A DNA stretch of 64,000 bases, taken from positions 335 to 64,334 of IMG/VR virus record IMGVR_UViG_3300035134_000062, one strand, 5' to 3'. The notes below the pieces were generated by a model. The model saw only the letters and a program-made list of their open reading frames with translations. It searched no databases and was not told the DNA's origin. The DNA is from a virus (Duplodnaviria; Caudoviricetes). Each line of letters begins with the position of its first letter. The stretch's first letter is position 1. The position numbers and the translations under genes were made by a program. This document shows positions 21,270 to 53,396 of this stretch, piece after piece.

Positions 21270-21294
21270 CATCCATAACCCTCCGCAAAAACCC

Positions 21295-39254: not shown

Positions 39255-39545
39255 ATGCGGCAGTTGGAACGATCCGTCGAGAATCGATTTGTTGAGTTGT
39301 GCAATGGTGCAAGCCTCACGCATGTAAAATGTACACCAGAGGGGACTGTTGCATGGCCTGATAGACTCATCCTAGCACCGGGCGGGCGAGCTATTTTCGT
39401 AGAGCTCAAACGCCCGGGGGAGGAGCCTAGGCCAGCGCAAGCGCACATTCATAGAAGGCTCAAGAGCCTTGGGTATACGGTTATCGTAGCTGATGATGCA
39501 GATGAGGCTTTTCAGAAGGTGTGCATTACATTGGGTGTAATATAA
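39255..39545 (+). CDS. VRR-NUC domain nuclease
   Basis: E.SVE..F, G..AWPDRLIL.PGG..IFVELKRPGE.PRP.Q...H..L..LG..V.V.D. Confidence 0.92.
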   Translation: MRQLERSVENRFVELCNGASLTHVKCTPEGTVAWPDRLILAPGGRAIFVELKRPGEEPRPAQAHIHRRLKSLGYTVIVADDADEAFQKVCITLGVI

Positions 39546-41014
39546 TGCGGCCTGAGAAATGGAATCCTCTACCCCACCACAAGACGGCAGTTAGATGGTT
39601 GGTGAAGCACCCGGAAGCGGCTCTTCTTCTGGCTCCGGGGTTGGGTAAGACTAGTGTAACGCTTGCAGCGTTTGCTGCACTACGCAAAGCTGGCACGGCC
39701 CGCAAGATGCTGGTCATAGCTCCACGTAGGCCGTGCTACAGCGTTTGGTCGTCAGAAGCCCCAGGAGAGCTTTGGAGGTGGAAAGACTTTCACGACCTTC
39801 GTGTAACGCTGCTACACGGTCCTCACAAGGATGATAGGCTCGAAGAAGATAGCGACATCTTCGTGATTAATTTCGATGGCCTCGTGTGGCTCATAGAAAA
39901 ACAGAAGTATCTGACGAAGTTGATCAAGCGTGGAGTTGATATTCTGGCCGTGGATGAGCTGAGCCGATTCAAGCATCCTAAGAGTAAACGCTTCAAGCTT
40001 CTCAAGCCGCACCTAGGAAGGTTTTCCAGGAGGTGGGGCCTCACTGGCTCCCCCGCCACAAATGGACTGCTAGATCTCTTTGGGCAGATCTACATGGTGG
40101 ACCTTGGGAAGTCCCTTGGGCGGTATATTTCACACTACCGTACGAAGTTCTTTGTTCCTTCCGGGTACAGGGGGTATAAGTGGAAGCTGCAGGACGGTGC
40201 GGAGAGGAGGATCTATCAAGCAATCAAACCCGTCGCGCTGTCGATGAAAGCTGAAGATCATTTGGATCTTCCTAAGCTTGTTGAGCAGGATGTATATGTA
40301 GACATCCCTTCCGAAGCTCAAAAGACTTACGCAGAGATGGAGGGGGAGTTCATTACTTTACTCAAAGATGGGGTGATTACAGCGGCGAATGCTGGGGTTG
40401 CTAGCCTGAAATGCAGGCAGATTGCTAGCGGTGGTCTGTACGCGCAGGATGAAAACCAAGCAACTACGCTCGAAGCTGTGAAGCAGAAGATCAAATCTCC
40501 ACCCCCCACGAGACGCAGGAAGACTCTACATATCCACCATGCAAAGACAGAAGCTTTGGAAGATTTGGTTAGTGAGTTGCAAGGGTCGCCGTTACTCGTA
40601 GCGTACGAATTTGAGCACGACTTGCAGCGTATCATGAGTATATTAGGCAAGGATGTTCCAGCGCTCAAGGGTGGTACGAGCGACAAAAAAGCAAACAAGT
40701 TGATCCAACAGTGGAATGCCGGACAGCTACCGGTTCTTTGTGGGCACCCTGCGGCTATGGGGCATGGGTTGAACCTGCAGCAATCCGGGTATCATGTCTG
40801 CTGGTATAGTCTGCCATGGGATTTCGAGATGTACGATCAGACGATTCGCCGAGTGTACCGCCATGGTAGTACTGCAGAGCGGGTGTTCGTGCATCGTTTG
40901 ATCGCAAGAGATACGCTAGACGAAGTTGTAGCTTCCGTACTACGTGCAAAGCAACGTCGCCAGGACGCGCTTTTCAAGGCTCTCAAAGCACACATTCGAA
41001 GATCTAGGAGTTAG
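39545..41014 (+). CDS. SNF2-like (SF2) helicase
   Basis: APGLGKT, VDELS.FK...SKRFK, LTGSP..NGLLDLFGQ, HPAAMGHGLNLQ, YDQTIRRVYR.G. Confidence 0.94.
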   Translation: MRPEKWNPLPHHKTAVRWLVKHPEAALLLAPGLGKTSVTLAAFAALRKAGTARKMLVIAPRRPCYSVWSSEAPGELWRWKDFHDLRVTLLHGPHKDDRLEEDSDIFVINFDGLVWLIEKQKYLTKLIKRGVDILAVDELSRFKHPKSKRFKLLKPHLGRFSRRWGLTGSPATNGLLDLFGQIYMVDLGKSLGRYISHYRTKFFVPSGYRGYKWKLQDGAERRIYQAIKPVALSMKAEDHLDLPKLVEQDVYVDIPSEAQKTYAEMEGEFITLLKDGVITAANAGVASLKCRQIASGGLYAQDENQATTLEAVKQKIKSPPPTRRRKTLHIHHAKTEALEDLVSELQGSPLLVAYEFEHDLQRIMSILGKDVPALKGGTSDKKANKLIQQWNAGQLPVLCGHPAAMGHGLNLQQSGYHVCWYSLPWDFEMYDQTIRRVYRHGSTAERVFVHRLIARDTLDEVVASVLRAKQRRQDALFKALKAHIRRSRS

Positions 41015-41015
41015 T

Positions 41016-41822
41016 ATGCCGAGCAAAGAGCAACTCAAGTTTGCATGCCCCCATTGCGCTACGAAGTTCGACGTTCAGGAGTTGGCGGTACACATTGACT
41101 CGACGAAATGCGGTGTGTACTTGCGCGAACATCTCGGGAAGCAATTCCGCAAAAACGTAGACGTGAAGGAGCCTACAAAAGCGCAAGCTGCCGCGCGTTC
41201 TGAAGCGCTGCTCGTACAGGACAAAAAAGGAAACACCGCTCTCAAGATGAGTGGGGGTTCGGAGGTTATCTACATCCCATACAGCTCTGATGGGTTGGAA
41301 GTTCGTACACTTCGCAAAGTGCAGTTCGATACTCAATATAAAGGGTCCCCCGAGTATCCGCCTGGCCGTGCGGCGATGCTGTATCTAGAATTTGCTCAAC
41401 TGCACGGAGCTACGGAGGAGACTCTCAATATGCTAGCGACTTTGGTTGACGTGCCATCGGCTGTACGGAAAAGGGCCCTTGAAGCTATGCACGTGCAAGA
41501 GACTACGTCTGATACGACAAAGATTGTGAAGGCCCAGATGGGCAGTGCTCGGGCGGAGGTGATACGCAAACCGCGTCGTAGTGCAGCGGCGATGTTTCAA
41601 GATCTGATCATGAAGGGGCTGTATACCGATGATGAGATCTTTGAACAGGTGCAAGAGGCTTTCGATCTTCCGGAAAGCAAACGGCGTTATGTTCAAGTAT
41701 ATCGTAGTAGGCTCCGCACCAAAGGGATGAATCCCCCACCTCGACGAGTGCATTCGGTGTCCGAAGCTCGCCCTTCGCAGCTCAAGGATATTCCAGCTCC
41801 GCCGCCTAAACCTTTGCGATAA
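41016..41822 (+). CDS. Hypothetical protein with an N-terminal CPHC motif and a possible C-terminal winged-helix
   Basis: AGGAG upstream; C-terminal TDDEIFEQVQEAF......YV..YRSRLR.KG. Confidence 0.7.
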   Translation: MPSKEQLKFACPHCATKFDVQELAVHIDSTKCGVYLREHLGKQFRKNVDVKEPTKAQAAARSEALLVQDKKGNTALKMSGGSEVIYIPYSSDGLEVRTLRKVQFDTQYKGSPEYPPGRAAMLYLEFAQLHGATEETLNMLATLVDVPSAVRKRALEAMHVQETTSDTTKIVKAQMGSARAEVIRKPRRSAAAMFQDLIMKGLYTDDEIFEQVQEAFDLPESKRRYVQVYRSRLRTKGMNPPPRRVHSVSEARPSQLKDIPAPPPKPLR

Positions 41823-41858
41823 ATACACTGAGTATATTTTGAAACCGGAAAGGAGCCA

Positions 41859-42095
41859 ATGATGTTGCTGAGCGTAGATCCAGATAGCGGAGTAGAGACT
41901 GTGACACTATCGGACGCGGATGTCACGCAGATCGTCTCCCGTGGGGGTGTGGTCGTGCGGATATCTATCATGACGTGTGACGGTACTTGGAAGGGAGAGG
42001 CGTATGACCGTGACACGGGGCGCGCCGGGGCGTTGCTTGATAGAGTGTACAATTTGTGGTGCTGCAGCCGCCGTGGGCGATCTGTACCCAGGTGA
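41859..42095 (+). CDS. Hypothetical protein
   Basis: AAGGAG upstream; its 3' end runs into the 98-bp repeat. Confidence 0.5.
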   Translation: MMLLSVDPDSGVETVTLSDADVTQIVSRGGVVVRISIMTCDGTWKGEAYDRDTGRAGALLDRVYNLWCCSRRGRSVPR

Positions 42096-42183
42096 GTGAC
42101 CAACCCAGGCCCGCGGTGCCCACCGACAGGCCGTAGATGACCAGCCAAGATGGCACGCAGTCTGCAAGGTAAGAAGGCATGAC
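42086..42183 (+). promoter_or_regulatory. 98-bp repeat copy 1 containing a sigma54-type -24/-12 motif (class II)
   Basis: Colinear with 51925-52022. TGGCACGCAGTCTGCA at 42151-42166 (GG-N10-GC); ACCCAGG direct repeats and a CGGTG-CC-CACCG palindrome lie upstream. Confidence 0.7.
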
Positions 42184-42352
42184 GTTGCCACACAGAACAG
42201 AAGACATTCTTCACCGCATCGAAGAAATTGATGCCTCCATCAGGCGCCTCAAAGGCACCGGCCTTACGTGGACTATGGATGCACTTGGTGACGCATACGC
42301 TTTGGATTACGAGCGAGCTCGCCTTGAGGATGAGCTTAGGAGACAATCATGA
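42179..42352 (+). CDS. 57-aa hypothetical protein (not in the ORF track)
   Basis: MTLPHRTEDILHRIEEIDASIRRLKGTG...ERARLEDELRRQS; ATGA coupling to 42349. Confidence 0.5.
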   Translation: MTLPHRTEDILHRIEEIDASIRRLKGTGLTWTMDALGDAYALDYERARLEDELRRQS

Positions 42353-42540
42353 CGATCAAGATTTGTCCTTGTTGTGGTCGTGAATATGACCTCGAAGGCT
42401 TCCGGGCCCTCGCCGATGGCGGGTACCAGGATATGATCGATACCGACATCCGGCTTGAGCAGCATCACTGCACCTGCAAGTCGACGATCGGGATTTTTGT
42501 GGCGCCGGATGGCACGGTTGTTGATGACCTGGATTGGTAA
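42349..42540 (+). CDS. Small Zn-ribbon protein
   Basis: CPCCGREY...HCTCKST; AGGAG upstream. Confidence 0.7.
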   Translation: MTIKICPCCGREYDLEGFRALADGGYQDMIDTDIRLEQHHCTCKSTIGIFVAPDGTVVDDLDW

Positions 42541-42552
42541 GCGCGGAGTGTA

Positions 42553-42654
42553 GTGACATCCCTGTCGCGGTCCGCAAAAAGGTGCGAGATTTCAGGTGTG
42601 TTTTGGATGTAAGTACTTGATTTCGTGTGCGCGATATCTGGCATGGAGAGTGCA
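42553..42654 (+). promoter_or_regulatory. sigma54-type promoter A (class I): upstream palindromes, IHF site and -24/-12
   Basis: GTGACA-N4-TGTCGC 42553-68; CCGCA-N6-TGCGA 42572-87; IHF consensus AATCAAGTACTTA (minus strand, 42610-22); TGGCATGGAGAGTGCA 42639-54. Confidence 0.75.
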
Positions 42655-42695
42655 TTAGGTATTAGCGTGCTTAGCCTAGAGAGGGAGACAGAGAC

Positions 42696-43667
42696 ATGAG
42701 CACAAAGAAACGCACCGATCCTCACCGCAAAGGTGCAATCATCCCCGCCGAGTACACCCACGTCCTGAGCTACAACGGCGGGACTACTAAGGATGGGTGG
42801 CCCGTACCGGCATTTGGGATCAACTGCACGTTCGACCGCCGAGTTGGGTACGATAAGGACGACCACCCTGTATCTCAGTGGGATCGTACCGCCGTACGTC
42901 ATGTAGACGGCCAGCATGATGCGGATGGTCAGTGTTGCGTCGTAGGGCTTATGCAGGTCGCCAAGGCGAAATTCGCGAGCCACGGGACCACCGGAAAGTG
43001 CACGGCTTGCGGGGCACAGTTTGTCTACGGCGAGGTATGGCGGCATGAGCCGACCGGCGAGCATATCCACGTAGGACATATCTGCGGCACCAAGTATGGC
43101 CTCCTTGCAGATCGTAGTGCTTTCGAGCTCGAAGCAGGGCGCAGAGCTCAGGCCGCCGCGATCGCCGCTCAAAAAGCCGTCAACGCTGAGAAGCGCAAAG
43201 CTTTCTTGGAGGCCCATGAAGGACTTGAAAAAGCGTTGGAGACACCCCACCGCATTGTGGGGGACATCAAGCGGCGGTTTGAGAAGTTCTGCACCCTGAG
43301 CGACAAGCAAATCGCTCTCGTGTACAAGCTTGCGGCCGAAGAAACAGCCCCCAAGGTGTGCGATCACTGCCACGGCGACCATGAGTTGGATGACTGCCCT
43401 GAGAGAACGCCACTTACAGATGGTCGCCAAGAGCTTTGTGGGCGTATCCTATCTGTTCAAGCGCGGGAGGAATTTTTTGGAACGTCGCTCAAAATGCTGG
43501 TGCTCTTGACCACAGGTGCGAAGGTATGGGGCACCCTGCCGCAAAGTCTCTGTAGCGTAGATGGTATTCTCCGGGGGAAGACAGTTCAATTTACGGCGCA
43601 GGTGACGGCTAAAGATCAATTTTTTGGCTTCTTCTCACGTCCAACCAGGGCGTCGGTTGTGCAGTAG
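42696..43667 (+). CDS. Early hypothetical protein with a probable C-terminal OB-fold
   Basis: CTACG, GHICG, LSDKQIAL, then a beta-rich C-terminus (G.ILSV...FG.SLKMLV....G.KVWGTLP...F.A.V...D..FGFF.RPT.A). Confidence 0.75.
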   Translation: MSTKKRTDPHRKGAIIPAEYTHVLSYNGGTTKDGWPVPAFGINCTFDRRVGYDKDDHPVSQWDRTAVRHVDGQHDADGQCCVVGLMQVAKAKFASHGTTGKCTACGAQFVYGEVWRHEPTGEHIHVGHICGTKYGLLADRSAFELEAGRRAQAAAIAAQKAVNAEKRKAFLEAHEGLEKALETPHRIVGDIKRRFEKFCTLSDKQIALVYKLAAEETAPKVCDHCHGDHELDDCPERTPLTDGRQELCGRILSVQAREEFFGTSLKMLVLLTTGAKVWGTLPQSLCSVDGILRGKTVQFTAQVTAKDQFFGFFSRPTRASVVQ

Positions 43668-43735
43668 CACGGAGGGCGCCCCTGGGACATCCCGGGGGCG
43701 TTGCTCGGCACTATTGCCGGAGGGAGAGAGACATG
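43661..43735 (+). promoter_or_regulatory. Double-hairpin stop-to-start leader, copy 1
   Basis: Near-identical to 51199-51269. A GC stem with G-U pairs, then CGGCA-CTAT-TGCCG, then the AGGGAGA RBS. Confidence 0.7.
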
Positions 43736-43921
43736 AAGATCTATCATATATACAACAACATCAGCGGTAAATACGTCGGCGGCTACCCGGCCGACACTGA
43801 GGATGCAGCCGCCGACGCCATGGTCCGTGAGGCCGGCTATGCAGATTTCGTAGAGTTCTGCGATATGCTAGGGGTGTCGGTCGATGATGCCAAGATTGAC
43901 CTGTTGCATATCTTTCTCTGA
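43733..43921 (+). CDS. Small acidic protein homologous to the N-terminus of 50429-51205
   Basis: Y.I.N..SG...G.Y.AD..E.A..AM.R.AGY.DF.E.CD..G.S. Confidence 0.8.
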   Translation: MKIYHIYNNISGKYVGGYPADTEDAAADAMVREAGYADFVEFCDMLGVSVDDAKIDLLHIFL

Positions 43922-43935
43922 GGGGAGACACAGCC

Positions 43936-44229
43936 ATGAGATCAGCGAAAGAAATCATCGAGCGCTTTGGCGAACTGACCACCACCGACCGCCGCTGCAT
44001 TGATGCCGGCTTCGCTGCAGGTAATTACTCCAACGGGTGCGAGACGGAAGACTACACCGAGACAGAGAAGCAAAGGGACGGCCGGAACGGCTTCTGGCGC
44101 ATGGGATTCTTGCTGGGATTCTTCTCTAGCTATGAACTCCATGAAGTGCCACCCGAGTACCGAGAGCAAGTGGGCACGTACAGGGAAGTGCTCGCGCTTC
44201 TCGAAGATGAAGGGGAGACACAGTCATGA
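43936..44229 (+). CDS. Hypothetical protein
   Basis: GGGGAGAC RBS motif. Confidence 0.75.
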   Translation: MRSAKEIIERFGELTTTDRRCIDAGFAAGNYSNGCETEDYTETEKQRDGRNGFWRMGFLLGFFSSYELHEVPPEYREQVGTYREVLALLEDEGETQS

Positions 44230-44483
44230 GCAACCACGCCACAATCGAGACTTATGAGCAGTATTGGGCCATGGTTTTTGGCCCGCATCGAGACCCTGCG
44301 GATGTCGTCGCCGACGATGACTGCCTATGCACTCCTGACGACATCAGGCATTTCGTGCTCGACGCAGAGCGGGAGGCCTTCGCCCAAGGAGCACAATGCA
44401 CATTCACCAAGCTCGTGAAGTTCCGAATCATAGCCGCTGAAGACTTGCACGCCGCCATGCTGGACGACGACAAGCCATTCTGA
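44226..44483 (+). CDS. Acidic hypothetical protein ('IETYEQYW' family)
   Basis: Paralog of 44500 and of the middle of 50429. Confidence 0.8.
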   Translation: MSNHATIETYEQYWAMVFGPHRDPADVVADDDCLCTPDDIRHFVLDAEREAFAQGAQCTFTKLVKFRIIAAEDLHAAMLDDDKPF

Positions 44484-44499
44484 GGAGGGAGACACAGTC

Positions 44500-44754
44500 A
44501 TGAGTATTTATCCCAGAATCGAGACTTACGAGCAGTATTGGGCCATTCTTTTCGGCAAAGACGAACCGGATGATGTCGTCTTCTCTGAGGATAGCCTACG
44601 GGGCATCGAAGACATCGAGCCTTTCTTGATTCGCACTGAACAGTATCGGCTCGCCGCGACAGCGGTTCCTTCCTCCGAGAAGCTTCGAGCCTTTCGAGCG
44701 GAAGCGGCGGAGGAACTCGAAGTCAGCATGCTGTGCGACGATATGGCATTCTGA
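44500..44754 (+). CDS. Acidic hypothetical protein ('IETYEQYW' family)
   Basis: Paralog of 44226. Confidence 0.8.
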   Translation: MSIYPRIETYEQYWAILFGKDEPDDVVFSEDSLRGIEDIEPFLIRTEQYRLAATAVPSSEKLRAFRAEAAEELEVSMLCDDMAF

Positions 44755-44768
44755 GGAGGGAGAGAGAC

Positions 44769-45176
44769 ATGACAAAGAAGACTGTCCACTACGCCGTGGC
44801 CTATGATACCTACGGAGTCCGCATGTGTCGCTATGCAGGGAAGACCCTGAAAGATACGCTGCTAAAGCTGGTCGATGATCAAGTAGTGGCTGACGAAACT
44901 TGTTCGATTGATATTTCTGTCGATCACGTTGCGGACGAACCGCTAACCACCGCCGAACAGCTCTATGCTGTCCTGGCCCGTGATGCCGCACCAAGTTTCG
45001 TAGCCCGCCTTTGTCAAGGACTCTTTGGGGAGTTGGCAGAAGAAGAAGTCATTTCGGATACTGGATGTGTTACATTTCAATGTTACATATTCCCGGACGG
45101 GAGCCGCCTTTGTATCAGCCACGACATTAATACGTGGTGGGTAAGCGAGGGTGGTGAGAAGGACGAGGAGAATTGA
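44769..45176 (+). CDS. Hypothetical protein
   Basis: GAGGAGGGAGAGAGAC RBS motif. Confidence 0.75.
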   Translation: MTKKTVHYAVAYDTYGVRMCRYAGKTLKDTLLKLVDDQVVADETCSIDISVDHVADEPLTTAEQLYAVLARDAAPSFVARLCQGLFGELAEEEVISDTGCVTFQCYIFPDGSRLCISHDINTWWVSEGGEKDEEN

Positions 45177-45382
45177 TGAATACAAAAAAGCGACTTCGTT
45201 TTCTGTCGGCGGTAGCAGAACAAAGGGTTGATGACATCCTAGCGATGGCAGATGAAGAGATTCTCAAGGAGGTAGAAGAATCCGGCAATGCCGAGAAAAT
45301 GGCAAGTCATCTGCGAGCAAAAGCGGCGGCCCTTGTTGCCCAAATCCGTAGGGAGAGACGAGATAAGGACGAGGAGGGATGA
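45176..45382 (+). CDS. Hypothetical protein
   Basis: GAGGAG upstream; coupled to the previous gene. Confidence 0.6.
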   Translation: MNTKKRLRFLSAVAEQRVDDILAMADEEILKEVEESGNAEKMASHLRAKAAALVAQIRRERRDKDEEG

Positions 45383-45385
45383 ACC

Positions 45386-45640
45386 ATGCCACGCGAACTG
45401 AGGAACTTTGGGCTACACTTGGCAGTGGACGGCAAAGCACGGTCCCTGCAGACCGGTCCGAATGGCAAGGATGGAGGTTTCACACTGCACTTTCTCATCA
45501 GAGAAGGTGAAAACGTCTCAGAGAAGCGCTTGTGCATTAAAGCATTTGTCTTCTCTGATGGCACTCTCGAAATCCGCGCAGACAGCGATGAGCCAGAACT
45601 TAGAGACAAGAGCATCACGCTCCTTCGAGGGTGGAGGTAG
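45386..45640 (+). CDS. Hypothetical protein (paralog pair)
   Basis: MPR...NF.L.L.VDGKARSL.TGP.GKDGGF. Confidence 0.8.
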   Translation: MPRELRNFGLHLAVDGKARSLQTGPNGKDGGFTLHFLIREGENVSEKRLCIKAFVFSDGTLEIRADSDEPELRDKSITLLRGWR

Positions 45641-45646
45641 GACGCC

Positions 45647-45901
45647 ATGCCACGCGCAGTGCCAAATTTTTGGCTCGACCTGACAGTGGACGGCAAAGCA
45701 CGGTCCTTGCGGACCGGACCGAAAGGCAAGGACGGGGGCTTTCAGCTTGCGTTCTTCATAAGAGAGGAGGGATCCGTTTCTCTGAAGAAGCTGACCATCG
45801 ACGGAGTCGTGCGCTTCGACGGCACTCTCGAAATCCAAGCCTGCAGCGATGAACCATGGCTTGAAGGCAAAGTCATGACGCTACTCAGCGGTAGGAGGTA
45901 G
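45647..45901 (+). CDS. Hypothetical protein (paralog pair)
   Basis: Tandem duplicate of 45386. Confidence 0.8.
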   Translation: MPRAVPNFWLDLTVDGKARSLRTGPKGKDGGFQLAFFIREEGSVSLKKLTIDGVVRFDGTLEIQACSDEPWLEGKVMTLLSGRR

Positions 45902-45907
45902 GGCACC

Positions 45908-46198
45908 ATGATAACCGCGTACGTTGGCGACCTCGCGTACCTCTTCTCATCCACCGTAGTCCTGGTGCCTGTGAAGACTCTAGACTGGCATTTTGTTGCC
46001 GGTAAGAATGCCGCACAAGACGGCAAAGTCCATAAAAATAGCGTAATGGAGGTCAGAGTCACCGCCACACGTGGCTCATACCGCCGGGGAGAGACTCTGC
46101 ATGTCCCACTCACCTCCGTGGCACCACGAAGGGCAGTGAAAAGCAAAGAGGGCAAGCTCATCGCGATTCGGCCCTACGAGTGGAAGGAGAGAACGTGA
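45908..46198 (+). CDS. Hypothetical protein (paralog pair)
   Basis: MITAYVGDLAYL...ATRG.YRRGE...PYEWKER. Confidence 0.8.
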   Translation: MITAYVGDLAYLFSSTVVLVPVKTLDWHFVAGKNAAQDGKVHKNSVMEVRVTATRGSYRRGETLHVPLTSVAPRRAVKSKEGKLIAIRPYEWKERT

Positions 46199-46476
46199 TG
46201 ATAACCGCGTACGTTGGCGACCTCGCGTACCTCGACACATTCAGTGGCCTTATCCCGGTGAAAACTTTCGGCAGTGGTTTTGTCCGAGGTGTGGATGACT
46301 TCAGCGACACGAAGACAGCCATTCAAGCTAAGGTTATTGCTACTCGTGGGGCCTACCGACGGGGCGAAGTTCTGATTAGACCACGCCGCACGGTAATCCC
46401 CCGACCAGCAGTGCGCCGCCACAAGTACAAGACCACAATCCTGCCGTACGAGTGGAAGGAGAGGAGTGAACTATGA
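46198..46476 (+). CDS. Hypothetical protein (paralog pair)
   Basis: Tandem duplicate of 45908. Confidence 0.8.
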   Translation: MITAYVGDLAYLDTFSGLIPVKTFGSGFVRGVDDFSDTKTAIQAKVIATRGAYRRGEVLIRPRRTVIPRPAVRRHKYKTTILPYEWKERSEL

Positions 46477-46691
46477 TCCGTTTCCTACTCATCATTACTG
46501 GGTTTACGCTCATCGGGTTAGCAATACGTCAAATGGTGCTGGCGCCTGATGGCGATGAGTGTGTTTTGACCAGAAATCGAATGGGGTTGTCGGGTCAAAT
46601 AGTCATCATCAGGGACCATGATCAGCTCCATTGTTTGCACACGATCACGGATGATTCGATCATTTACGTGTGCCCAAGGACGGAACCATGA
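46473..46691 (+). CDS. Small membrane-anchored protein
   Basis: MIRFLLIITGFTLIGLAI N-terminal TM segment. Confidence 0.6.
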   Translation: MIRFLLIITGFTLIGLAIRQMVLAPDGDECVLTRNRMGLSGQIVIIRDHDQLHCLHTITDDSIIYVCPRTEP

Positions 46692-47134
46692 ACATCACAG
46701 TTGATCAGATCATGAAGTGGAACCCATGTGGACGCTGGCCTCGTGAGCGCATCGAGAAAATGATGGGGGGCGCGCCGGTGTCGTTGGAGAGAATCCTGGT
46801 GGCCCCCGACATACCACGTTCTGACCGCATTTGGGTAGCATGTTACGTGTTCCCCGAAACTATCCAAGTTTGGATAAACCGAGCTGATACTTATGCCACC
46901 GAAGCCGAGGAATCCACTGAACTTACACAGGACTACAAAGAGGCGGCCGAAAATGCGGCCATCGACGCCGCCGAGTGCGCTGACAACTTTAGTTGGTTCC
47001 CTGGAGCGCGAGCCTACGCTGCCCACCTCTACGCTTTGGACGCCGCCCGCTACGTGAGGGGCTGGAAAGGTTGGGGGAAAGAACTCGAAGCACAACTTGC
47101 GATCCTGATTCAGCTCGCCAAGGAGAGAAAATAG
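46688..47134 (+). CDS. Ala-rich 'MNITVDQIM.W.PC' family protein
   Basis: Paralog of 53852 and 54433. Confidence 0.8.
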   Translation: MNITVDQIMKWNPCGRWPRERIEKMMGGAPVSLERILVAPDIPRSDRIWVACYVFPETIQVWINRADTYATEAEESTELTQDYKEAAENAAIDAAECADNFSWFPGARAYAAHLYALDAARYVRGWKGWGKELEAQLAILIQLAKERK

Positions 47135-47136
47135 CT

Positions 47137-47670
47137 ATGCGTATGTGGATGGTTAGTCCCGAGTGCCTTTGCGACCTGCATCTGAACGGAGAGCATGGCG
47201 AGATACACAAACATCGCGGCAGCTTCGTCAATCAACATTCCATCAAGGGGCGCTATGGTCAGATTGAGCCGCTGGCCATGAAGAGACGGCATGATGCCCT
47301 CGCCAAGGAAATGATGTATCGAGGTATGAATCATCACTCACCATACGAGATGCCGGACATCTCCTATCTCTCGAAGAGGGACCGCGAAGGCAAGGTGGAC
47401 ACAACTGTCTCCGTGGCCTTGCTCAGCTTGAGGTGCATGGCCTGCAACGAACGCTTGAACGATTTTTTCAGAGGTAAGCTGCAGCGACGGCGGTTGCTGG
47501 AGTCCATCCGGATGGACTTCGGCGACCTGCACCGTCTCGTTGACCCGGAAGACATCAAAGACACTGCAGTGGAATTAATGGGGGCCATCAGGAGCGGGCA
47601 TCAACTTGGACTCCTATCCCCCACTGAGAGCAGAGCTCTCTACCGACGCGCATGGAGCATCGCAACATGA
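47137..47670 (+). CDS. Pyrimidine-dimer DNA glycosylase (DenV-like) with an appended helical domain
   Basis: MRMWMV.P..LC..HL.GEH.EIH....RHDAL..EM..RG.NH.SP. Confidence 0.8.
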   Translation: MRMWMVSPECLCDLHLNGEHGEIHKHRGSFVNQHSIKGRYGQIEPLAMKRRHDALAKEMMYRGMNHHSPYEMPDISYLSKRDREGKVDTTVSVALLSLRCMACNERLNDFFRGKLQRRRLLESIRMDFGDLHRLVDPEDIKDTAVELMGAIRSGHQLGLLSPTESRALYRRAWSIAT

Positions 47671-47954
47671 AACCTTTTCAAGGATTAGCTTTTCGCGTAA
47701 TGCCAGTGCCAACTCGATTCCCGGAAAGTCTGGTAAAGAATGTCGTTGGAAAATTCAGGCAAGCTCAAGCGGATTTCAAGGATGCACAAGCGGCCTACGA
47801 CGAAGGAGACCCAGCTTCCGTGTACGCATTCTGGACTGCATCTAAAGAGTTCAGCGAAGCTGGTTTGGCGATATGCCGTTTGGCGTACGCGGACGAGTTG
47901 GACCGCGATAGTGCCGAAGTGAAAGTCATGTCAGCAGAGGATGCTATGTCATGA
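47667..47954 (+). CDS. Hypothetical protein
   Basis: ATGA coupling on both sides. Confidence 0.6.
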   Translation: MKPFQGLAFRVMPVPTRFPESLVKNVVGKFRQAQADFKDAQAAYDEGDPASVYAFWTASKEFSEAGLAICRLAYADELDRDSAEVKVMSAEDAMS

Positions 47955-48163
47955 AAGATTCACGTGTTGTGGTGTTAGAGCATTTGAGGGATCATTTTTG
48001 GTGGCTACGAAACTGCTACGTTTGCAAGCATCAAAGAAGTCGGTGGTGCCACGAACTCATAGGCTCTGTTGAGGTATGTAAAGAAATTGGTATTATTTCA
48101 AACAAGGAAGCGATTGCGCTTATAAATCGCGCCCAAGAAATTGTGGGGGAGGATGCCGAATGA
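47951..48163 (+). CDS. Small helical protein resembling the DenV-like C-terminal domain
   Basis: LEHLRDHF...ELIG.......GIIS..E...L..RA. Confidence 0.65.
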   Translation: MKDSRVVVLEHLRDHFWWLRNCYVCKHQRSRWCHELIGSVEVCKEIGIISNKEAIALINRAQEIVGEDAE

Positions 48164-48570
48164 AAATCATGACAGCACAAGAAGTTCGTGAGAAGCAACG
48201 CGCCATTACCGAGGAGAGAGAAGTCAAGAAAGACACTTGGGAGGCGGAGTTGTTGCGGGAAATGTTGGAAGCAATCAACGCAGCAACAGAGTATGCTATC
48301 AACCGAGATCTGAACCAACCAGTAACTGAAGCCCATATAGTGGTAGAGCAACTGCCACAAGAATACACGAGGTGGAGGGCATCCGGTATCCACTCATGGC
48401 GTCCAAGTAAGTTGTCTATGCACAAGACGGAGAAATTGGTTTTAGGTCGAGTAAAAGCGGTTCTGCTGCATAAGTTCACCGTAAGATGGAATACATCATA
48501 CTATGGAGATTCTCCAAATAGCTTCCGTACACTGCGGTTAATCTGGTCCTGGGGGGAGGAAGACAAATGA
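48160..48570 (+). CDS. Hypothetical protein
   Basis: GGGAGGA upstream; ATGA coupling. Confidence 0.65.
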   Translation: MKIMTAQEVREKQRAITEEREVKKDTWEAELLREMLEAINAATEYAINRDLNQPVTEAHIVVEQLPQEYTRWRASGIHSWRPSKLSMHKTEKLVLGRVKAVLLHKFTVRWNTSYYGDSPNSFRTLRLIWSWGEEDK

Positions 48571-48914
48571 TTCTCAAACTACAGACATACGACCATACCC
48601 GCGTGGTCTTCGAGACAATCAATGAGAACTTTGCGCATCTGGAAAAGCGCATCGCCAAGCTCGAAGCGGAGCGGGGAGCTCCCAAGGAACCAGCGCCGGA
48701 CTTCAATCGAGAACAAGCCAGGAAAAAGGCGCTCAAGAACCTCCGTCGTAGCTTCATTCGCTTGCGTTCGAGGCGCCGCTTCAGGATGCGCGCAGCGTAT
48801 GGCCTAGCCTGCAAACTTCAGCTTATGGATGATCTTCAGCTTGTATCGTCGGACGAGTACAACAAGCTGGCCCGCCGCGCGATGGCCCTGCGCTACGAGG
48901 AGCAAGAGCCATGA
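48567..48914 (+). CDS. Hypothetical protein with a C-terminal helical domain shared with 47951
   Basis: LKNLRRSF...L.LVS.DE...L.RRA. Confidence 0.65.
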   Translation: MILKLQTYDHTRVVFETINENFAHLEKRIAKLEAERGAPKEPAPDFNREQARKKALKNLRRSFIRLRSRRRFRMRAAYGLACKLQLMDDLQLVSSDEYNKLARRAMALRYEEQEP

Positions 48915-49240
48915 AAGCAACGCGAGCAGAGAAGCGAGCTTTGCTTGAGACTGTAGAACGGTGGGCCGCGGTTGTTGTCATCGACAGAGAGGGATACCCG
49001 CGCTCGTTCTTTAGCGCATGTTCTCTGTGCCGGCTAGCAGGTGGGTGTGTAACCAGACAACCGGACTGTCTGCAGTGTGTTGCGTACCAAGCGCTAGGGG
49101 CAGTATGCACAGGACCGAGCGGGGCATTTGGGCGCTATTTTAACGGCGTCCCAACCAACGAAAGCGTTCTACTCACAGCGATTTTGCTCTGCGAAATCTA
49201 CGGAATCGACGTCGAAGCGGAGCTCGGATGGGAGGAGTAA
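48911..49240 (+). CDS. Hypothetical protein (paralog of 30559-30930)
   Basis: CSLC...CLQC...TNESVLLTAILLCEIYGIDVEAEL. Confidence 0.75.
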   Translation: MKATRAEKRALLETVERWAAVVVIDREGYPRSFFSACSLCRLAGGCVTRQPDCLQCVAYQALGAVCTGPSGAFGRYFNGVPTNESVLLTAILLCEIYGIDVEAELGWEE

Positions 49241-49245
49241 GAAAG

Positions 49246-49989
49246 ATGAGCACCACAACATCGACCGCCTGCGGCACTTGTGCACACTGTATGGGTCCAG
49301 CTCAAAGCTGCATCCTAATCCCAGCTGAAGAAGCCGAATGCCATGCGTCTGATCCGCACAACAGAAAGCATTGGAAGCAATGGGAACCAAAGGCCGTCAC
49401 ATTAGCATCAACGCCGGGCAGGACTTGCGGTGCTTGCCACTACTTCGAGGACAGCACTTCTGGCCTCATCATATGCACATTGTACTGCACTCCGGCCGAG
49501 GCCCATGTCGCTGCTTGCTCCAACTGGAGAGCTCCGCGCACCGGTGCCGTACAGATGAGTTGTGGCAATTGCGCCAGGCAGCGCAAAGATGGGAGTTGCG
49601 GCATTGGAGCCGACAAGGTGAGCGAGTGCATCATCTACAGCCGCCGCAAGCATTGGATACCTAAAACCACAAGCTCAGAGTCCGCGCCCCCGCCGAGCAC
49701 GGCCGCTCCGCAACCGGACCCTTGCGCTCCGACGCCCATCGAAGGTCATCACGCCAGAATCAAAGTGGACGTAGGGGACCATATCGTCGACCCGAGTGTG
49801 CTTCAGCAAATTGCGGAGCGCGCGGAGGCTCAGCTCCGCCGAGACATTTTCTTCTGCGAGACATGCCCATTCTGCCCCACGTGCGGCAAGAATCGCCGCC
49901 TGAATTTCCGGAGAAGTCCGGAGTATGTCTCCAAACATGCCGAGTTCTATCGCATCACAGCCGAGTGGGTCTGCGATCATGAAGTGTAG
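49246..49989 (+). CDS. Multi-CxxC protein with a C-terminal domain shared with 28381-29097
   Basis: Three CxxC..C modules (two ending ..RKHW.PK), then PD.CAP...PFC..CGK.R.L.F....YR..A..VC. Confidence 0.75.
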   Translation: MSTTTSTACGTCAHCMGPAQSCILIPAEEAECHASDPHNRKHWKQWEPKAVTLASTPGRTCGACHYFEDSTSGLIICTLYCTPAEAHVAACSNWRAPRTGAVQMSCGNCARQRKDGSCGIGADKVSECIIYSRRKHWIPKTTSSESAPPPSTAAPQPDPCAPTPIEGHHARIKVDVGDHIVDPSVLQQIAERAEAQLRRDIFFCETCPFCPTCGKNRRLNFRRSPEYVSKHAEFYRITAEWVCDHEV

Positions 49990-50090
49990 TGACAACCGTG
50001 TCACGGTCCGCAAAAATGTGCGGATTCTTGAAGGTGGTATGAGCGTAAGTAGTTGTTTTTACGTGCTCAATATTTGGCACGTGGAGTGCA
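49989..50090 (+). promoter_or_regulatory. sigma54-type promoter B (class I)
   Basis: GTGACA-ACCG-TGTCAC 49989-50004; CCGCA-N6-TGCGG 50008-23; IHF-like AAACAACTACTTA (minus strand, 50046-58); TGGCACGTGGAGTGCA 50075-90. Spacings are identical to promoter A. Confidence 0.75.
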
Positions 50091-50135
50091 TTAAGGATCA
50101 ATGTGTCTGTCAGACACAAGAGGGAGAGAGACATC

Positions 50136-50351
50136 ATGGGTCATGGCGGTAGACGTCCCGGTTCTGGCCGGCCGAGCCTTGGGGTTGGGTACACCCGCAT
50201 TACGGCTTTGTTGAGTGATAAGCAGATCGCTGCTATCCACACCTGGCGTGACACATACCAGTGCAAGACGGTATCTGAGGCCCTACGGCAGATCTTGGAT
50301 GCCTTGAGGGATACGCTGGATTCCCCGGCGCAAAAAAAGCCGCCTGAGTGA
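50136..50351 (+). CDS. Small DNA-binding protein (GGRRPGSGRP motif plus a ribbon-helix-helix-like region)
   Basis: GGRRPGSGRP, RITALLSDKQIAAI.......TVSEALRQIL. Confidence 0.7.
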   Translation: MGHGGRRPGSGRPSLGVGYTRITALLSDKQIAAIHTWRDTYQCKTVSEALRQILDALRDTLDSPAQKKPPE

Positions 50352-50360
50352 TTTTTTTTG

Positions 50361-50389
50361 TTGACGAGTCCAGTTGATTACCGTATACT
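50361..50389 (+). promoter_or_regulatory. Strong sigma70-type promoter
   Basis: TTGACG-N17-TATACT with a T/A tract directly upstream, 40 nt before the 50429 start. Confidence 0.8.
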
Positions 50390-50428
50390 GTATTCATGAT
50401 CGAGGCAACGTCAACGAGGGAGAGAGAC

Positions 50429-51205
50429 ATGACAACTTATCGAATCAGCAATCGCACCAGTGGAGCGGACCTTGGCACCTACAATGCGGATTCGCCAGAA
50501 GAAGCGCTCAACGCCATGGCCCGGGATGCGGGTTATGACGACTTCACAGAAAATTGCGATGTCGTGGGGTTGTCAATCGGCGAAGCTACGAGAGACTTGG
50601 TCATCGTGGAACTCGACGAGACCCCGACAGCCGCAGAAGCCGACACCCACGCACGGATCGACAGTTACAGCGCGTATTGGGATATGGTGGTTGGCCCATA
50701 CCGCGACCCAGAGGGCGTCATCGATGAAGTCGGCGAGGGGTGCTACGCCAGCGTCAGGGACTGGCTAATCGCTGCAGAGACCCAGTGTCTGGACCAAGGC
50801 GCGACCTGCAGCGGGGATGATTTGGCCGCTTACCGCGAAAAGGCGGCTCAAGAGATCAATGTTGCAACGGGTCAGGTACGCGAGGATCCTCCCCGCGCCC
50901 GCTTGATCCTGGACAACGGCGGCGGGGCTACCCTACAGCTCGGCTCCTGGGGCGGCGACTTTGACGCCAGGACGGCCTCGGCGTGCGCGCAGTCTATCGC
51001 AGCATGGCTTCGCGACCAGACCACCGAAGGGTGGGAGGGAACGGAATCCGCCGCGGTGCTCAAACCGACGGAAGAGCAGATCCGGAATGGCGGGTACACG
51101 GTAGTCGAGCTCGATGATCTCGCATCGCTCGATGGTGAGTACGGTGGCGAGGCCGAGGCCGAGATCCGCGCGGCCCTGATCCGCTTTGGTGTGCTCGCGC
51201 AGTAG
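50429..51205 (+). CDS. Three-domain acidic early protein
   Basis: Domain 1 resembles 43733, domain 2 resembles 44226/44500, and domain 3 is unique here; AGGGAGAGAGAC RBS. Confidence 0.8.
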   Translation: MTTYRISNRTSGADLGTYNADSPEEALNAMARDAGYDDFTENCDVVGLSIGEATRDLVIVELDETPTAAEADTHARIDSYSAYWDMVVGPYRDPEGVIDEVGEGCYASVRDWLIAAETQCLDQGATCSGDDLAAYREKAAQEINVATGQVREDPPRARLILDNGGGATLQLGSWGGDFDARTASACAQSIAAWLRDQTTEGWEGTESAAVLKPTEEQIRNGGYTVVELDDLASLDGEYGGEAEAEIRAALIRFGVLAQ

Positions 51206-51269
51206 CACGGAGGGCGCCCCTGGGAGACCGGGGGCGTCGCTCGGCACTATTGCCGGAGAGGGAGACATG
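51199..51269 (+). promoter_or_regulatory. Double-hairpin stop-to-start leader, copy 2
   Basis: Same stems as 43661-43735; the apical loop is GAGA (GNRA). Confidence 0.7.
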
Positions 51270-51938
51270 AAGCTTTACAAGCTGACAGACGCTGACAGCT
51301 ACACTCGGCGTGGGCAACCCGAGGCCGTGGCGTGGATCCCTGGCGCACCACCGCCGAAACTCGACGGGACAGAGCTCTGCAGCGCAGGCGTTTACCACGC
51401 CTACCGCACTCCAGAGATCGCAGTATTTATGGATTCTATCCACGCCGCCTATCTACCCGGTGGCCTCCTGTGGGAAGCTGATGGCGACGTTGTGGCGGAC
51501 GACGGTACAAAGGTTGGTTGTCAGTCCCTGACCGTGCACCGCGTCATCACGCCACCCGTGCTCCCTCTAGCGGTGCGGGTGCGGGTGGCGATTTATGCAG
51601 TGCAGCGGGTGATGCCCACTTCCCAGTGCCAGTCCTGGCATGAATGGGCGCACTCGTGGCTGTCGGGTACAGATCGATCAGCGAAGGCGGCGGATGCAGC
51701 GGCGCGGGCAACGGCGCGGGCGGTGTGGTTGGCGGCGGATGCAGAGGCGCGGGCGGCGGCGCGAGCGACATGGTTGGCGGCGGAGGCGGATGCGGAGGCG
51801 GATGCGGAGGCGTGGTCGGCGGAGGCGGTGGAGCGTGCGACGTATTCCACCGGAGCCGCCTTTACTCTGCAGGCGTACATCGAAAGAGCTATACAGGACG
51901 AAGAGCGGCTTGGGGGTAATCCCCACCCAGGTGAGTGA
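51267..51938 (+). CDS. Hypothetical protein with a C-terminal Ala-rich 15-aa repeat
   Basis: LYKLTD..., W..DG....DGTKVGC..LT....I, then W.EWA.SWLSG.DRS..AA and AADAAARATARAVWL/AADAEARAAARATWL repeats. Confidence 0.8.
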   Translation: MKLYKLTDADSYTRRGQPEAVAWIPGAPPPKLDGTELCSAGVYHAYRTPEIAVFMDSIHAAYLPGGLLWEADGDVVADDGTKVGCQSLTVHRVITPPVLPLAVRVRVAIYAVQRVMPTSQCQSWHEWAHSWLSGTDRSAKAADAAARATARAVWLAADAEARAAARATWLAAEADAEADAEAWSAEAVERATYSTGAAFTLQAYIERAIQDEERLGGNPHPGE

Positions 51939-52022
51939 CCAACCCAGGCTAGCGGTGCCCACCGAGGCAGCAGAGACGGCCAGCGGAGATGGCACGACGG
52001 GTGCAAGGTAAGAAGGCATGAC
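51925..52022 (+). promoter_or_regulatory. 98-bp repeat copy 2 containing a sigma54-type -24/-12 motif (class II)
   Basis: TGGCACGACGGGTGCA at 51990-52005; colinear with 42086-42183. Confidence 0.7.
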
Positions 52023-52038
52023 ACGGAGGGACGACACG

Positions 52039-52158
52039 ATGACACTCAGCCTCAAAGACAAGATCGCCATTGCCAACGTCAAAGCGGACGCCCACGACGC
52101 CGCCAAGACTTTCGCCGCCGCCACCCGCGAGCTCCGCGCCGCGCTACAAGCCAAGTAG
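52039..52158 (+). CDS. 39-aa helical micro-protein
   Basis: MTLSLKDKIAIANVKADAHDAAKTFAAATRELRAALQAK; GGAGGG RBS just downstream of the predicted sigma54 start site. Confidence 0.55.
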   Translation: MTLSLKDKIAIANVKADAHDAAKTFAAATRELRAALQAK

Positions 52159-52168
52159 GGAGCCTGAA

Positions 52169-52357
52169 ATGAACGCTTACGCCGTAAGAGCCATTGACGC
52201 CGCCGGGACCGAGACTTTACTGCGCACCGCAGCCCACAGCGCCGACATCGCCGTGACCAAAGCCGCCGTCCTGCTGGGGACCGGCTATCTGGTAACCCAT
52301 GTCGCGCTGGTCGGCGCCTCCTGCTGGACCGAGATCGACGGCGGCATCGCCGCCTGA
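52169..52357 (+). CDS. Hypothetical protein
   Basis: MNAYAVRAIDAAG...; GGGAG upstream. Confidence 0.55.
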   Translation: MNAYAVRAIDAAGTETLLRTAAHSADIAVTKAAVLLGTGYLVTHVALVGASCWTEIDGGIAA

Positions 52358-52380
52358 AACACACACAAGAGAGGGAAGCC

Positions 52381-52620
52381 ATGTCAGATCCATTATACGC
52401 AGTCTTTTCGTGCGACCAGAATGGTTCCGTAGTATCACTGGCCCGGTTCCGGAGTGCAGATGATGCGGTGGAGCGCGCCAAGAAAATTTGTGCGGACTGT
52501 CCGACTCATTCGGTTGTGATCATCGTCCAGGGAGAGGATGCCGGCCAAGGTGGGTACCTGGTACCGCCGGATGGTGATTGGTCCGCCGATGCGGTGGTGT
52601 GGAGGGGTGAGCAGCGCTGA
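52381..52620 (+). CDS. Hypothetical protein
   Basis: GAGAGGGAAG upstream. Confidence 0.65.
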   Translation: MSDPLYAVFSCDQNGSVVSLARFRSADDAVERAKKICADCPTHSVVIIVQGEDAGQGGYLVPPDGDWSADAVVWRGEQR

Positions 52621-52630
52621 ATTTTTGCTA

Positions 52631-52734
52631 TGAGAGCAGGGTCGCCGAGGCCGCCATTGCAGGCCTACCCCCGCCCCGCGGATGGCAGGCTACACTGTGG
52701 TCTCCCTGCTGCAGTGTAGGCGGCCCTGCTCTCA
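52631..52734 (+). ncRNA. Candidate structured RNA 1 (multibranch) displaying GUCUCCCU in an apical loop
   Basis: Intergenic. 16-bp closing stem 52631-46/52719-34 with one G-U pair; hairpin CTACACTG/CAGTGTAG with the loop containing TGGTCTCCCT. Confidence 0.65.
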
Positions 52735-52755
52735 CCTTCGCAAGAGGAGGGTATT

Positions 52756-53067
52756 ATGTTCTCGATGATCGATTTTCTACGACGCAAGCGGAGCGAAGTG
52801 GATTTGAATCTCAAAAGAATTACATTCCATGGCGATGGAGATTTAGCTTATCGTGTCGAGCTACGCAAAGATGGTGGTCCGGATTGCTGTGTGTACTCCA
52901 CGCAGAATGTAGACCTGGCGGAGCGGTGGGCGAGGAGAGAAGTTTGCAGCGCACGCAGAGCTTTTGATTCTGCGGAAGTCTTTGTGACTTGGACTGACTT
53001 AGTCACTGGTGAGAATGGGTACCTGAACACCACCACCGTACACGAAAGCACAGGAAAGGCGTGGTAA
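52756..53067 (+). CDS. Hypothetical protein
   Basis: GAGGAGGG RBS. Confidence 0.65.
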   Translation: MFSMIDFLRRKRSEVDLNLKRITFHGDGDLAYRVELRKDGGPDCCVYSTQNVDLAERWARREVCSARRAFDSAEVFVTWTDLVTGENGYLNTTTVHESTGKAW

Positions 53068-53288
53068 ATCTCTTGAAGCTGAAAGCATACCGAGGACGCG
53101 CCATGCTCAGCTTGCGAAAGAGCTTTACTGATCTGCGTAATCCTCTGAAAGGAAGTTACGGCGTAGACGCAGCATATTGGTGCCTGCAGGGAAAAATCGT
53201 GATGGCTGCTCTAAATCTCTTGATCTCAGATGAGGAGGTAGGTAACTTGGTGGTGCGTGCTACTTATCTGTACAATCGCAGAAGGTAG
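53061..53288 (+). CDS. Hypothetical protein
   Basis: GGAAAGG upstream; overlaps the previous stop. Confidence 0.5.
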   Translation: MVNLLKLKAYRGRAMLSLRKSFTDLRNPLKGSYGVDAAYWCLQGKIVMAALNLLISDEEVGNLVVRATYLYNRRR

Positions 53289-53298
53289 CTTGAGGGAG

Positions 53299-53383: not shown

Positions 53384-53396
53384 AGGGGTTTACGTC

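Follow-up and report, generated by a model that had tools for sequence, protein, structure and literature searches.

Putative sigma-54 promoters on duplicated intergenic cassettes in the accessory arm of a phage that lacks a recognizable activator

Introduction

How could a phage that carries bacterial-type sigma-54 (RpoN) promoter sequences without a sigma-54 or activator gene of its own have the genes behind them switched on? The locus that raises this question lies at positions 42553-50090 of a 64,000-nucleotide stretch of viral DNA (hereafter the window; all coordinates refer to it), which comprises bases 335-64334 of the 64,334-bp IMG/VR virus record IMGVR_UViG_3300035134_000062 (Duplodnaviria; Caudoviricetes), a genome with direct terminal repeats that is rated 100% complete. 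Sigma-54 promoters are silent until an ATP-driven activator opens them; in enhancer-dependent promoters of this type with a bend introduced by the integration host factor (IHF), such as glnHp2, nifH, and Pu/Po, the core follows the consensus TGGCACG-N4-TTGCW. A reading of the locus from the letters alone (hereafter the sequence-only reading) had described two copies of such an architecture. In the present work, we compare these copies with each other, with the rest of the genome, and with viral and bacterial sequences. On balance, it is probable that four sites, termed A, B, C, and D, are working sigma-54 promoters carried on short duplicated cassettes in a lineage-specific accessory arm of the genome.

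Results

Two paralogous intergenic modules with promoter-like elements

Modules A (42547-42695) and B (49983-50135), both intergenic and about 150 bp long, are paralogues offset by 7436 positions; their alignment is free of indels from 42547 to about 42669. Re-reading of the sequence located every element that had been listed for the two modules at its reported position. Module A contains on the plus strand (i) a first palindrome, GTGACA-N4-TGTCGC (42553-42568), centered at about -104 from the predicted start, (ii) a second palindrome, CCGCA-N6-TGCG (42572-42586), centered at about -86 and considered a candidate activator site, and (iii) a sigma-54-type -24/-12 core, TGGCATGGAGAGTGCA, with the GG-N10-GC signature (42639-42654), which places the predicted +1 near 42665. 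Between the palindromes and the core, an exact IHF consensus, AATCAAGTACTTA (WATCAA-N4-TTR), is found on the minus strand (42610-42622) with its center at about -49. In module B, the first palindrome is perfect (GTGACA-N4-TGTCAC; 49989-50004, plus strand) and overlaps the stop codon of the 253-aa gene that precedes it, the second palindrome reads CCGCA-N6-TGCGG (50008-50023, plus strand), and the core TGGCACGTGGAGTGCA, again with GG-N10-GC (50075-50090, plus strand), places the predicted +1 near 50101. The IHF-like site of B, AAACAACTACTTA (50046-50058, minus strand), aligns with the exact site of A and has one mismatch in the WATCAA core. The reported distances of 87 nt from the start of the first palindrome to the GG and of 30 nt from the IHF site to the GG are correct in both modules.

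Since A and B represent one duplicated module, their identical spacing was inherited and does not reflect two independent arrivals. It is the mosaic pattern of identity, rather than equal spacing, that carries weight. Alignment by segments bore out the earlier remark that the intervening bases diverge while the elements are kept: identity between A and B is 0.86 in the block of the first palindrome (upstream activating sequence 1, UAS1; 42547-42568), 0.94 in the block of the second palindrome (UAS2; 42569-42586), 0.85 in the IHF-like block, and 0.79 in the -24/-12 block, with only 0.39 in spacer 1 and 0.58 in spacer 2. Taken singly, the first palindrome with at most two mismatches is not enriched in the window (4 occurrences versus 3.0 expected), and the exact IHF consensus is moderately enriched (6 versus 1.6 expected). 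A sigma-32-type reading of the CTTGAA sequence in B was rejected, as this sequence is not conserved in A.

Four exact cores in intergenic gaps

The A and B sites listed in the sequence-only reading are real, but the list is incomplete. A second repeat pair, C/D, which had been logged separately (42075-42183 versus 51914-52022, 80% identical), also carries sigma-54-type cores, TGGCACGCAGTCTGCA in C (42151-42166, plus strand) and TGGCACGACGGGTGCA in D (51990-52005, plus strand). The conserved block of this pair spans the stop codons of the upstream genes, and these stops fall in different frames; thus, conservation is at the level of DNA and not of protein. Within the conserved block of C (42085-42126), a dyad CGGTG-CC-CACCG (42114-42125, plus strand) is centered at about -57.

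On its plus strand, the 64,334-bp genome has four exact matches to the 16-mer TGGCAYG-N5-TGCA, namely in A, B, C, and D, whereas neither the reverse strand nor a backwards control of the pattern gave any match in this genome; about 0.06 occurrences are expected in random sequence by our own arithmetic. The recurrence of the core is thus far beyond chance. Each of the four cores falls between genes, in a gap of 79-155 nt, and is oriented on the coding strand toward the gene that follows. Compared with the bacterial sigma-54 consensus TGGCACG-N4-TTGCA, the core of A matches at 10 of 12 positions and the cores of B, C, and D at 11 of 12.

The phage encodes a sigma-70-family sigma factor (23173-23988, in the plus-strand arm), and the sites could instead be promoters for this factor, sites of another protein, or recombination scars with an accidental likeness to sigma-54 promoters. 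Such readings would fit the absence of the sites from relatives of the phage and the partial dyad symmetry of a wider viral motif class (see below for both), as for a dimeric binding protein; in the four copies in this phage, however, the dyad is weak, comprising only 3-4 bp. Sigma-70-family factors need 16-18 bp between their boxes, whereas the two conserved boxes here are about 8 bp apart, and neither inspection by eye nor a scan revealed a -35/-10 pair conserved in both A and B. Given this spacing, the sites are not read by the sigma factor that the phage encodes. Moreover, accident hardly accounts for a pattern of 11 positions that is matched exactly four times, each time in the correct orientation and between genes, and the sites are confined to one accessory block instead of showing the genome-wide distribution expected of a phage sigma regulon. 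We consider it very unlikely that the sites are anything other than sigma-54-type cores; at the level of sequence, the sigma-54 reading has good support.

No sigma-54, activator, or IHF gene in the phage

The sequence-only reading stated that the genome encodes no recognizable enhancer-binding protein, and this statement holds. Six-frame hidden Markov model searches of the complete genome gave no match to PF00158 (Sigma54_activat), PF14532 (Sigma54_activ_2), or PF00004 (AAA), and no GAFTGA-like motif was seen in the phage. The same searches gave no match to sigma-54 (PF04552, Sigma54_DBD) or IHF/HU (PF00216, Bac_DNA_binding); control genomes gave matches for the searched families. Because the phage has neither sigma-54 nor an activator, its accessory-gene block is probably switched on through a host regulator.

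Palindromes as candidate DNA-binding sites

The palindromes of A and B start at the stop codon of the preceding gene or 13 nt beyond it. This location would also suit cassettes in which the cores are sigma-54-type and the palindromes form a stem-loop half that ends or stabilizes the upstream transcript and provides recombination homology for the shuffling of accessory genes. Cassettes of this kind, the mobile promoter-early stem-loop (PeSL) elements, have been documented in T4-type phages (Arbiol et al. 2010, PMC2839356). The layout recalls that of PeSLs: short repeated intergenic cassettes combine an inverted repeat with a promoter in a plastic small-gene region with duplicated or shuffled genes around them, and the region studied here is rich both in repeated intergenic modules (A/B, C/D, and a further pair, E/F, with z about -3.5) and in paralogous small genes. 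In an unrelated phage (G010, see below), GC-rich hairpins directly precede six sigma-54-like cores. However, PeSLs carry sigma-70 early promoters and effective terminators, whereas the promoters here are of the sigma-54 type and the A/B repeats are unconvincing as terminators. When folded as RNA, the A/B palindromes do not surpass shuffled sequence (z -0.5 and -1.3), the hairpin of the second palindrome does not form in A, and the differences between the two copies are not compensatory. A scan for terminators identified none at 42540-42600 or 49980-50040, where no T tract is present, and Rfam gave no match in 41000-54000. Weak RNA folding together with the lack of a T tract favors a binding role at the DNA level, and the resemblance of the second palindrome to DNA sites that adjoin bacterial activator genes, described next, likewise speaks against a stem-loop function. 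We thus regard the A/B palindromes as favored candidates for DNA-level sites and the stem-loop explanation as unlikely.

The palindromes had been proposed as a means of identifying the activator in bacterial genomes. The outcome of such a search was divided, the first palindrome remaining at chance level and the second yielding activator-adjacent sites. The pattern CCGCA-N6-TGCGG followed by a core 36-66 nt later gave 49 bacterial matches, most of them in coding sequence and chance-like, and one clearly real group, formed by a member of the Woeseiaceae, two Lentisalinibacter species, and a gammaproteobacterial metagenome-assembled genome (loci L343, L370, L385, and L390). In each of these genomes a single CCGCA-N6-TGCGG site is found, which is intergenic and lies 45 nt upstream of a sigma-54 core. 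At the Woeseiaceae and gammaproteobacterial loci, the neighboring divergent gene encodes a protein with the Pfam architecture PAS-Sigma54_activat-HTH_8; the Lentisalinibacter sites are adjoined by activator-like sequence, as detected by tblastn.

The bacterial sites share half-sites and spacing with the phage dyad. Three of the four have in common with the phage an extended CGGTCCGCAAA...TGCGG that takes in a third half-site immediately upstream; the extended bacterial form reads CTGCGG-T-CCGCA-N6-TGCGG. The bacterial loci differ from the phage modules in the distance to the core (45 versus 51 nt), in the presence of only one site per genome, and in the lack of the GTGACA-N4-TGTCAC palindrome, and it is by the CCGCA-N6-TGCGG motif alone that these bacteria are linked to the phage. 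No single regulon emerges from the diverse genes that follow the bacterial sites (DUF1348, DUF2282, YcgR-like, and TctC); in the two Lentisalinibacter genomes, the downstream gene belongs to DUF1348 (SnoaL-like). The sites of PAS-type activators in Woeseiaceae-like Gammaproteobacteria may thus exemplify the kind of host activator that the phage borrows, which we offer as a lead and not as proof.

Start codons at +3 and a near-leaderless viral class

A feature that the first description of the locus did not contain is the position of the start codon, which follows TGCA by exactly 12 nt at all four sites: it is an ATG in C and D and a GTG in A and B (42667 and 50103). The layout of C and D is TGCA-N10-GC-ATG, with the ATG at about +3 if the C of the GC is taken as -12.

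The pattern TGGCAYG-N5-TGCA-N10-GCATG has at least 113 distinct matches in IMG/VR; among the matches listed, about 50 of 113 begin an open reading frame (ORF) of at least 45 codons whose upstream frame is closed. As a control of distance, we used TGGCACG-N4-GTGCA-N{0,30}-GCATG, a stricter pattern than one with a 12-base core, which had been swamped by chance matches. Among the 90 IMG/VR matches listed for this control, a gap of 10 was seen in 23 and a gap of 11 in 7, with about 2 for every other gap. Members of this viral class prefer GTGCA over TTGCA at -15, show extra conservation after -12, and are in part dyad-symmetric (GCACG-N3-CGTGC in many members). In bacterial genomes, a stricter form of the near-leaderless pattern gave 11 matches in 596 Gbp, 10 of them at ORF starts. 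A search of the literature for sigma-54 promoters with leaderless starts in phages returned nothing on point.

A phage in which this layout recurs, G010 (IMGVR_UViG_3300044487_000013; loci L014 and L018-L021), is unrelated to the phage studied here, with a 66-kb genome of 64% GC. Its sigma-54-like cores that match at least 10 of 12 positions number seven, all in one orientation; six are clustered around the genome ends, and six of the seven have a GC-rich hairpin before them and an ATG exactly 12 nt after the final GCA. No PF00158 match was found in G010.

A bacterial counterpart is provided by Alicycliphilus denitrificans (locus L404), in which a phenol-hydroxylase operon, adjoined by a divergent activator gene of the XylR/DmpR type, has a sigma-54 promoter that reads TGGCACG-N4-GTGCA-ATA-N7-GCATG. 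Its ATG is 12 nt after TGCA, so that both core variant and offset agree with C and D, and the offset agrees with that of the GTG in A and B. Regulation of phenol hydroxylase by XylR/DmpR-type proteins is a textbook sigma-54 system; thus, an authentic sigma-54 system can have its start codon 12 nt after TGCA. Unlike the phage sites, this promoter is chromosomal and has an activator gene next door, and its start codon was assigned from ORF and Pfam coordinates. The first gene of the operon appears near-leaderless.

The viral class bears on whether a host activator is needed at all. The sites might be real sigma-54 sites that are opened by an unrecognised phage protein or independently of any activator, with the palindromes serving as operators of a phage regulator, for which the ribbon-helix-helix-like product of the gene behind B and an XRE-like protein (24257-24514) would be candidates. 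None of 57 viral records with such motifs (12 + 45, including 19 rated at least 90% complete) encodes PF00158, the spacing of the class forms a sharp spike in viral contigs while a stricter form is rare in bacteria, and the class departs from bacterial usage in its GTGCA and in its conservation beyond -12. A small DNA-binding-like gene lies directly behind B, and the first palindrome was not found at bacterial sigma-54 promoters. Against this stands the fact that we know of no route by which sigma-54 closed complexes are opened without an AAA+ ATPase, and the phage has no AAA-type domain of any kind. The same GTGCA form with its start codon at +3 heads a bacterial operon that adjoins a classical activator gene, and the second palindrome resembles bacterial activator sites. 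Opening without a host activator accordingly appears improbable.

More broadly, the four sites may belong to a widespread, virus-enriched class of the form TGGCAYG-N4-(G)TGCA with a start codon 12 nt later, through which activator-less phages would run accessory or host-takeover genes from near-leaderless mRNAs via host sigma-54; either the enhancer would be copied from that of one host activator, or the complex would open without a classical AAA+ activator. We put this forward as a speculative possibility of rather low probability.

Relatives and probable host

The terminase of the phage shares no more than 52.6% identity with its counterparts in BcepMu-like Burkholderia phages; the polymerase shares 42-45% with that of a Manatee Spring phage and with those of phages infecting Pseudoxanthomonas and Stenotrophomonas. 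The best match of the large terminase subunit in a sample of 401 genomes of Gammaproteobacteria has 49% identity. The sequence-only reading had pointed to a sigma54-rich host such as Myxococcota or Desulfobacterota, which these results do not support, as the nearest cultured relatives by terminase and polymerase infect Burkholderia, Pseudoxanthomonas, and Stenotrophomonas. A host among the Pseudomonadota is likelier, judging from relatives only.

Four metagenomic phages, with SNF2 helicases 55-61% identical to that of the phage studied, share its polymerase-nuclease-helicase module and have a far shorter arm beyond the helicase gene. Among the observations named beforehand as speaking against RpoN promoters was loss of the motif among relatives. 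The sites are indeed absent from relatives, but since the downstream arm is also much shorter there, this comparison is no clean test. As the relatives lack both the sites and the long arm, the promoters belong to a lineage-specific accessory region. No close relatives were confirmed in IMG/VR by exact peptide patterns from the 323-aa protein behind A and from the SNF2 helicase, and DNA megablast of 40000-53000 against cultured phages gave no match. The UAS1+UAS2 pattern had 0 matches in IMG/VR, and the A/B core with its flank had 0 matches in metagenome contigs.

Genes behind the promoters

Behind A, the GTG at about +3 opens a mini-ORF of 10 codons (42667-42699, plus strand), the TGA stop of which overlaps the ATG at 42696 of a 323-aa gene (42696-43667, plus strand). 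The JGI call starts this gene at 42951 (238 aa), leaving a gap of 410 nt; the ATG at 42696, which yields 323 aa, has the ribosome-binding motif common to neighboring genes. The C-terminal part of the product matches PHROGs 18425 and 4750, which have no assigned function. The gene behind B (50103-50351, plus strand) encodes 82 aa from the in-frame GTG at about +3 or 71 aa from an ATG at 50136 led by a Shine-Dalgarno (SD) sequence. Its product has no Pfam match; structural look-alikes in the Atlas include ribbon-helix-helix RHH/CopG clusters (TM 0.62-0.64), which makes a ribbon-helix-helix-like regulator a lead only. The gene behind C encodes 57 aa from an ATG at 42179 (plus strand, about +3), and that behind D encodes 46 aa from an ATG at 52018 (plus strand, about +3), with a second ATG at 52039 that has its own SD sequence. 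Pfam and PHROGs assigned no function to the genes behind the promoters.

Between the gene behind B and a 258-aa gene, a near-consensus sigma-70 promoter, TTGACG-17-TATACT, is located at 50361-50389 (plus strand; 10 of 12 positions). It is preceded by a run of eight T residues and bracketed by a 7-bp inverted repeat, GTTGACG ... CGTCAAC (50352-50428). Directly after the RHH-like gene presumably driven by B, this promoter may form part of a small regulatory switch.

Genome context

A simple gene map shows two arms that diverge from an iteron-rich gap (18641-19256). The arm on the minus strand is structural, and the plus-strand arm (19257-55303) includes genes for a VapE-like primase, dUTPase, Dam, a family A DNA polymerase, a PD-(D/E)XK nuclease, and the SNF2 helicase (39521-41014), besides the sigma factor mentioned above. 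One of the exact IHF consensus sites (18747-18759) falls within the iteron-rich divergent control region between the arms. No tRNA genes were found in the phage genome.

After the helicase gene, about 40 small genes occupy approximately 41.8-55.3 kb, nearly all without Pfam or PHROGs assignment, and many of them form paralogous pairs or triplets. The paralogous sets include 44226-44483, 44500-44754, and an internal part of 50429-51205; 45386-45640 and 45647-45901; 45908-46198 and 46198-46476; and 46688-47134, 53852-54436, and 54433-55002. The product of 43733-43921 resembles the N-terminus of the 258-aa protein (50429-51205). Regions 43733-47134 and 50429-55002 look like a shuffled, expanding accessory block.

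The third repeated intergenic module, E/F (43668-43732 and 51206-51266), has two hairpins with z -3.5 and -3.7 versus shuffles. No T tract follows these hairpins, and the end of the module is the common GGAGGGAGA...ATG ribosome-binding motif. The 10-mer TCCGCAAAAA has four copies versus 0.16 expected. Its fourth copy, at 41146, is within a gene; the copy at 21282 is intergenic, after the primase gene, and lies inside a CGCAA-N6-TTGCG dyad (21282-21297), which overlaps the -35 box of a sigma-70-like promoter, TTGCGC-17-TAGGCT.

Discussion

Taken together, the sites resemble enhancer-dependent bacterial promoters in their GG-N10-GC cores with 10-11 of 12 consensus positions, in dyads at about -104 and -86, in the IHF consensus at about -49 in A, and in their orientation. 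They differ from such promoters in being phage-borne without a sigma-54, activator, or IHF gene, in having GTGCA or CTGCA at -15, and in the start codon at about +3. Of the RpoN-promoter reading proposed earlier, the cores, their orientation, and the lack of a phage activator thus stand, whereas the steps that involve a host activator and IHF are plausible, with one concrete lead. We infer sigma-54 binding, dependence on a host activator, use of IHF, and the start site from the DNA sequence.

In the mechanism that we favor, host RNA polymerase with host sigma-54 would bind the -24/-12 core and wait there as a closed complex. This complex would be opened by an AAA+ enhancer-binding protein of the host that occupies the upstream dyads, of which CCGCA-N6-TGCGG, at about -86, is the likelier activator site. 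As for the protein itself, the best lead points to a gammaproteobacterial host with a PAS-type activator of the NtrC family. Contact would be aided in A and B by an IHF-type bend located at about -49. Transcription would then start 1-2 nt before the start codon and give near-leaderless mRNAs. The products would be small proteins, including, from B, a probable ribbon-helix-helix regulator encoded just before the consensus sigma-70 promoter.

Several observations weigh against this mechanism. No relative keeps the sites: the four helicase relatives have no convincing sigma-54-like site in the 10-kb flanks, only 10/12 matches in coding-like contexts, and Manatee Spring phage has no intergenic sigma-54-like site. 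All support thus comes from paralogues within one genome, equivalent to two comparisons that are independent of each other. In 185,579 bacterial genomes, the first palindrome with a sigma-54 core behind it has 2 matches and the UAS1+UAS2 composite has 5 in bacterial genomes, both at chance level. The extended match of the second palindrome could be luck (rough p about 0.01), most of the 49 matches to its shorter form being due to chance, and the dyad-to-core distances, 51 nt for the phage versus 45 nt for the bacterial sites, are about half a helical turn apart. The IHF site of B carries a mismatch in its core, and the lack of an activator in all 57 viral records may mean a different activation route. 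Finally, the genes are part of a co-directional array without clear upstream terminators, so that read-through may also express them and the promoters may matter little.

The same gene order bears on two further claims of the sequence-only reading. It had assigned the promoters to early genes, a label that finds no support, since the sites are internal to a co-directional 19-55 kb arm, downstream of the primase, polymerase, and helicase genes, and precede small genes without family assignment. Its suggestion that infection may depend on a host signal was stronger than the data allow, given possible expression by read-through, and infection need not require sigma-54; a conditional boost of accessory genes fits better.

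The closest published parallel concerns Pseudomonas phage YuA. Its GenBank record (NC_010116) annotates three active "-24/-12 consensus" promoters, a sigma-54-like start site has been mapped by ONT-cappable-seq (PMC10914365), and, as cited in that article, YuA is reported to use host sigma-54 promoters without an activator of its own (Ceyssens et al. 2008). Both phages lack an activator and replicate with a family A DNA polymerase. They differ in that the three annotated YuA fragments are in the structural module, where they match the consensus poorly and our own scan found no site with at least 10 of 12 positions, and the similarity of the primase and polymerase to those of the phage studied here is distant (25-26% identity). 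Promoter-trap and start-site data exist for YuA, whereas the promoters of the present phage are predicted from sequence.

If the favored mechanism is true, genes of an activator-less phage behind sigma-54 promoters would be tied to a host signaling protein, and the virus would be reading host physiology. Such gating of phage genes by host signals via sigma-54 has been published for very few phages, YuA among them. The near-leaderless sigma-54 mRNAs would be a second unusual feature, one whose sequence layout recurs in many unrelated viral contigs. The enhancer sequence may, in addition, be of use in linking uncultured phages to their hosts, provided that its match to host activator sites is borne out.

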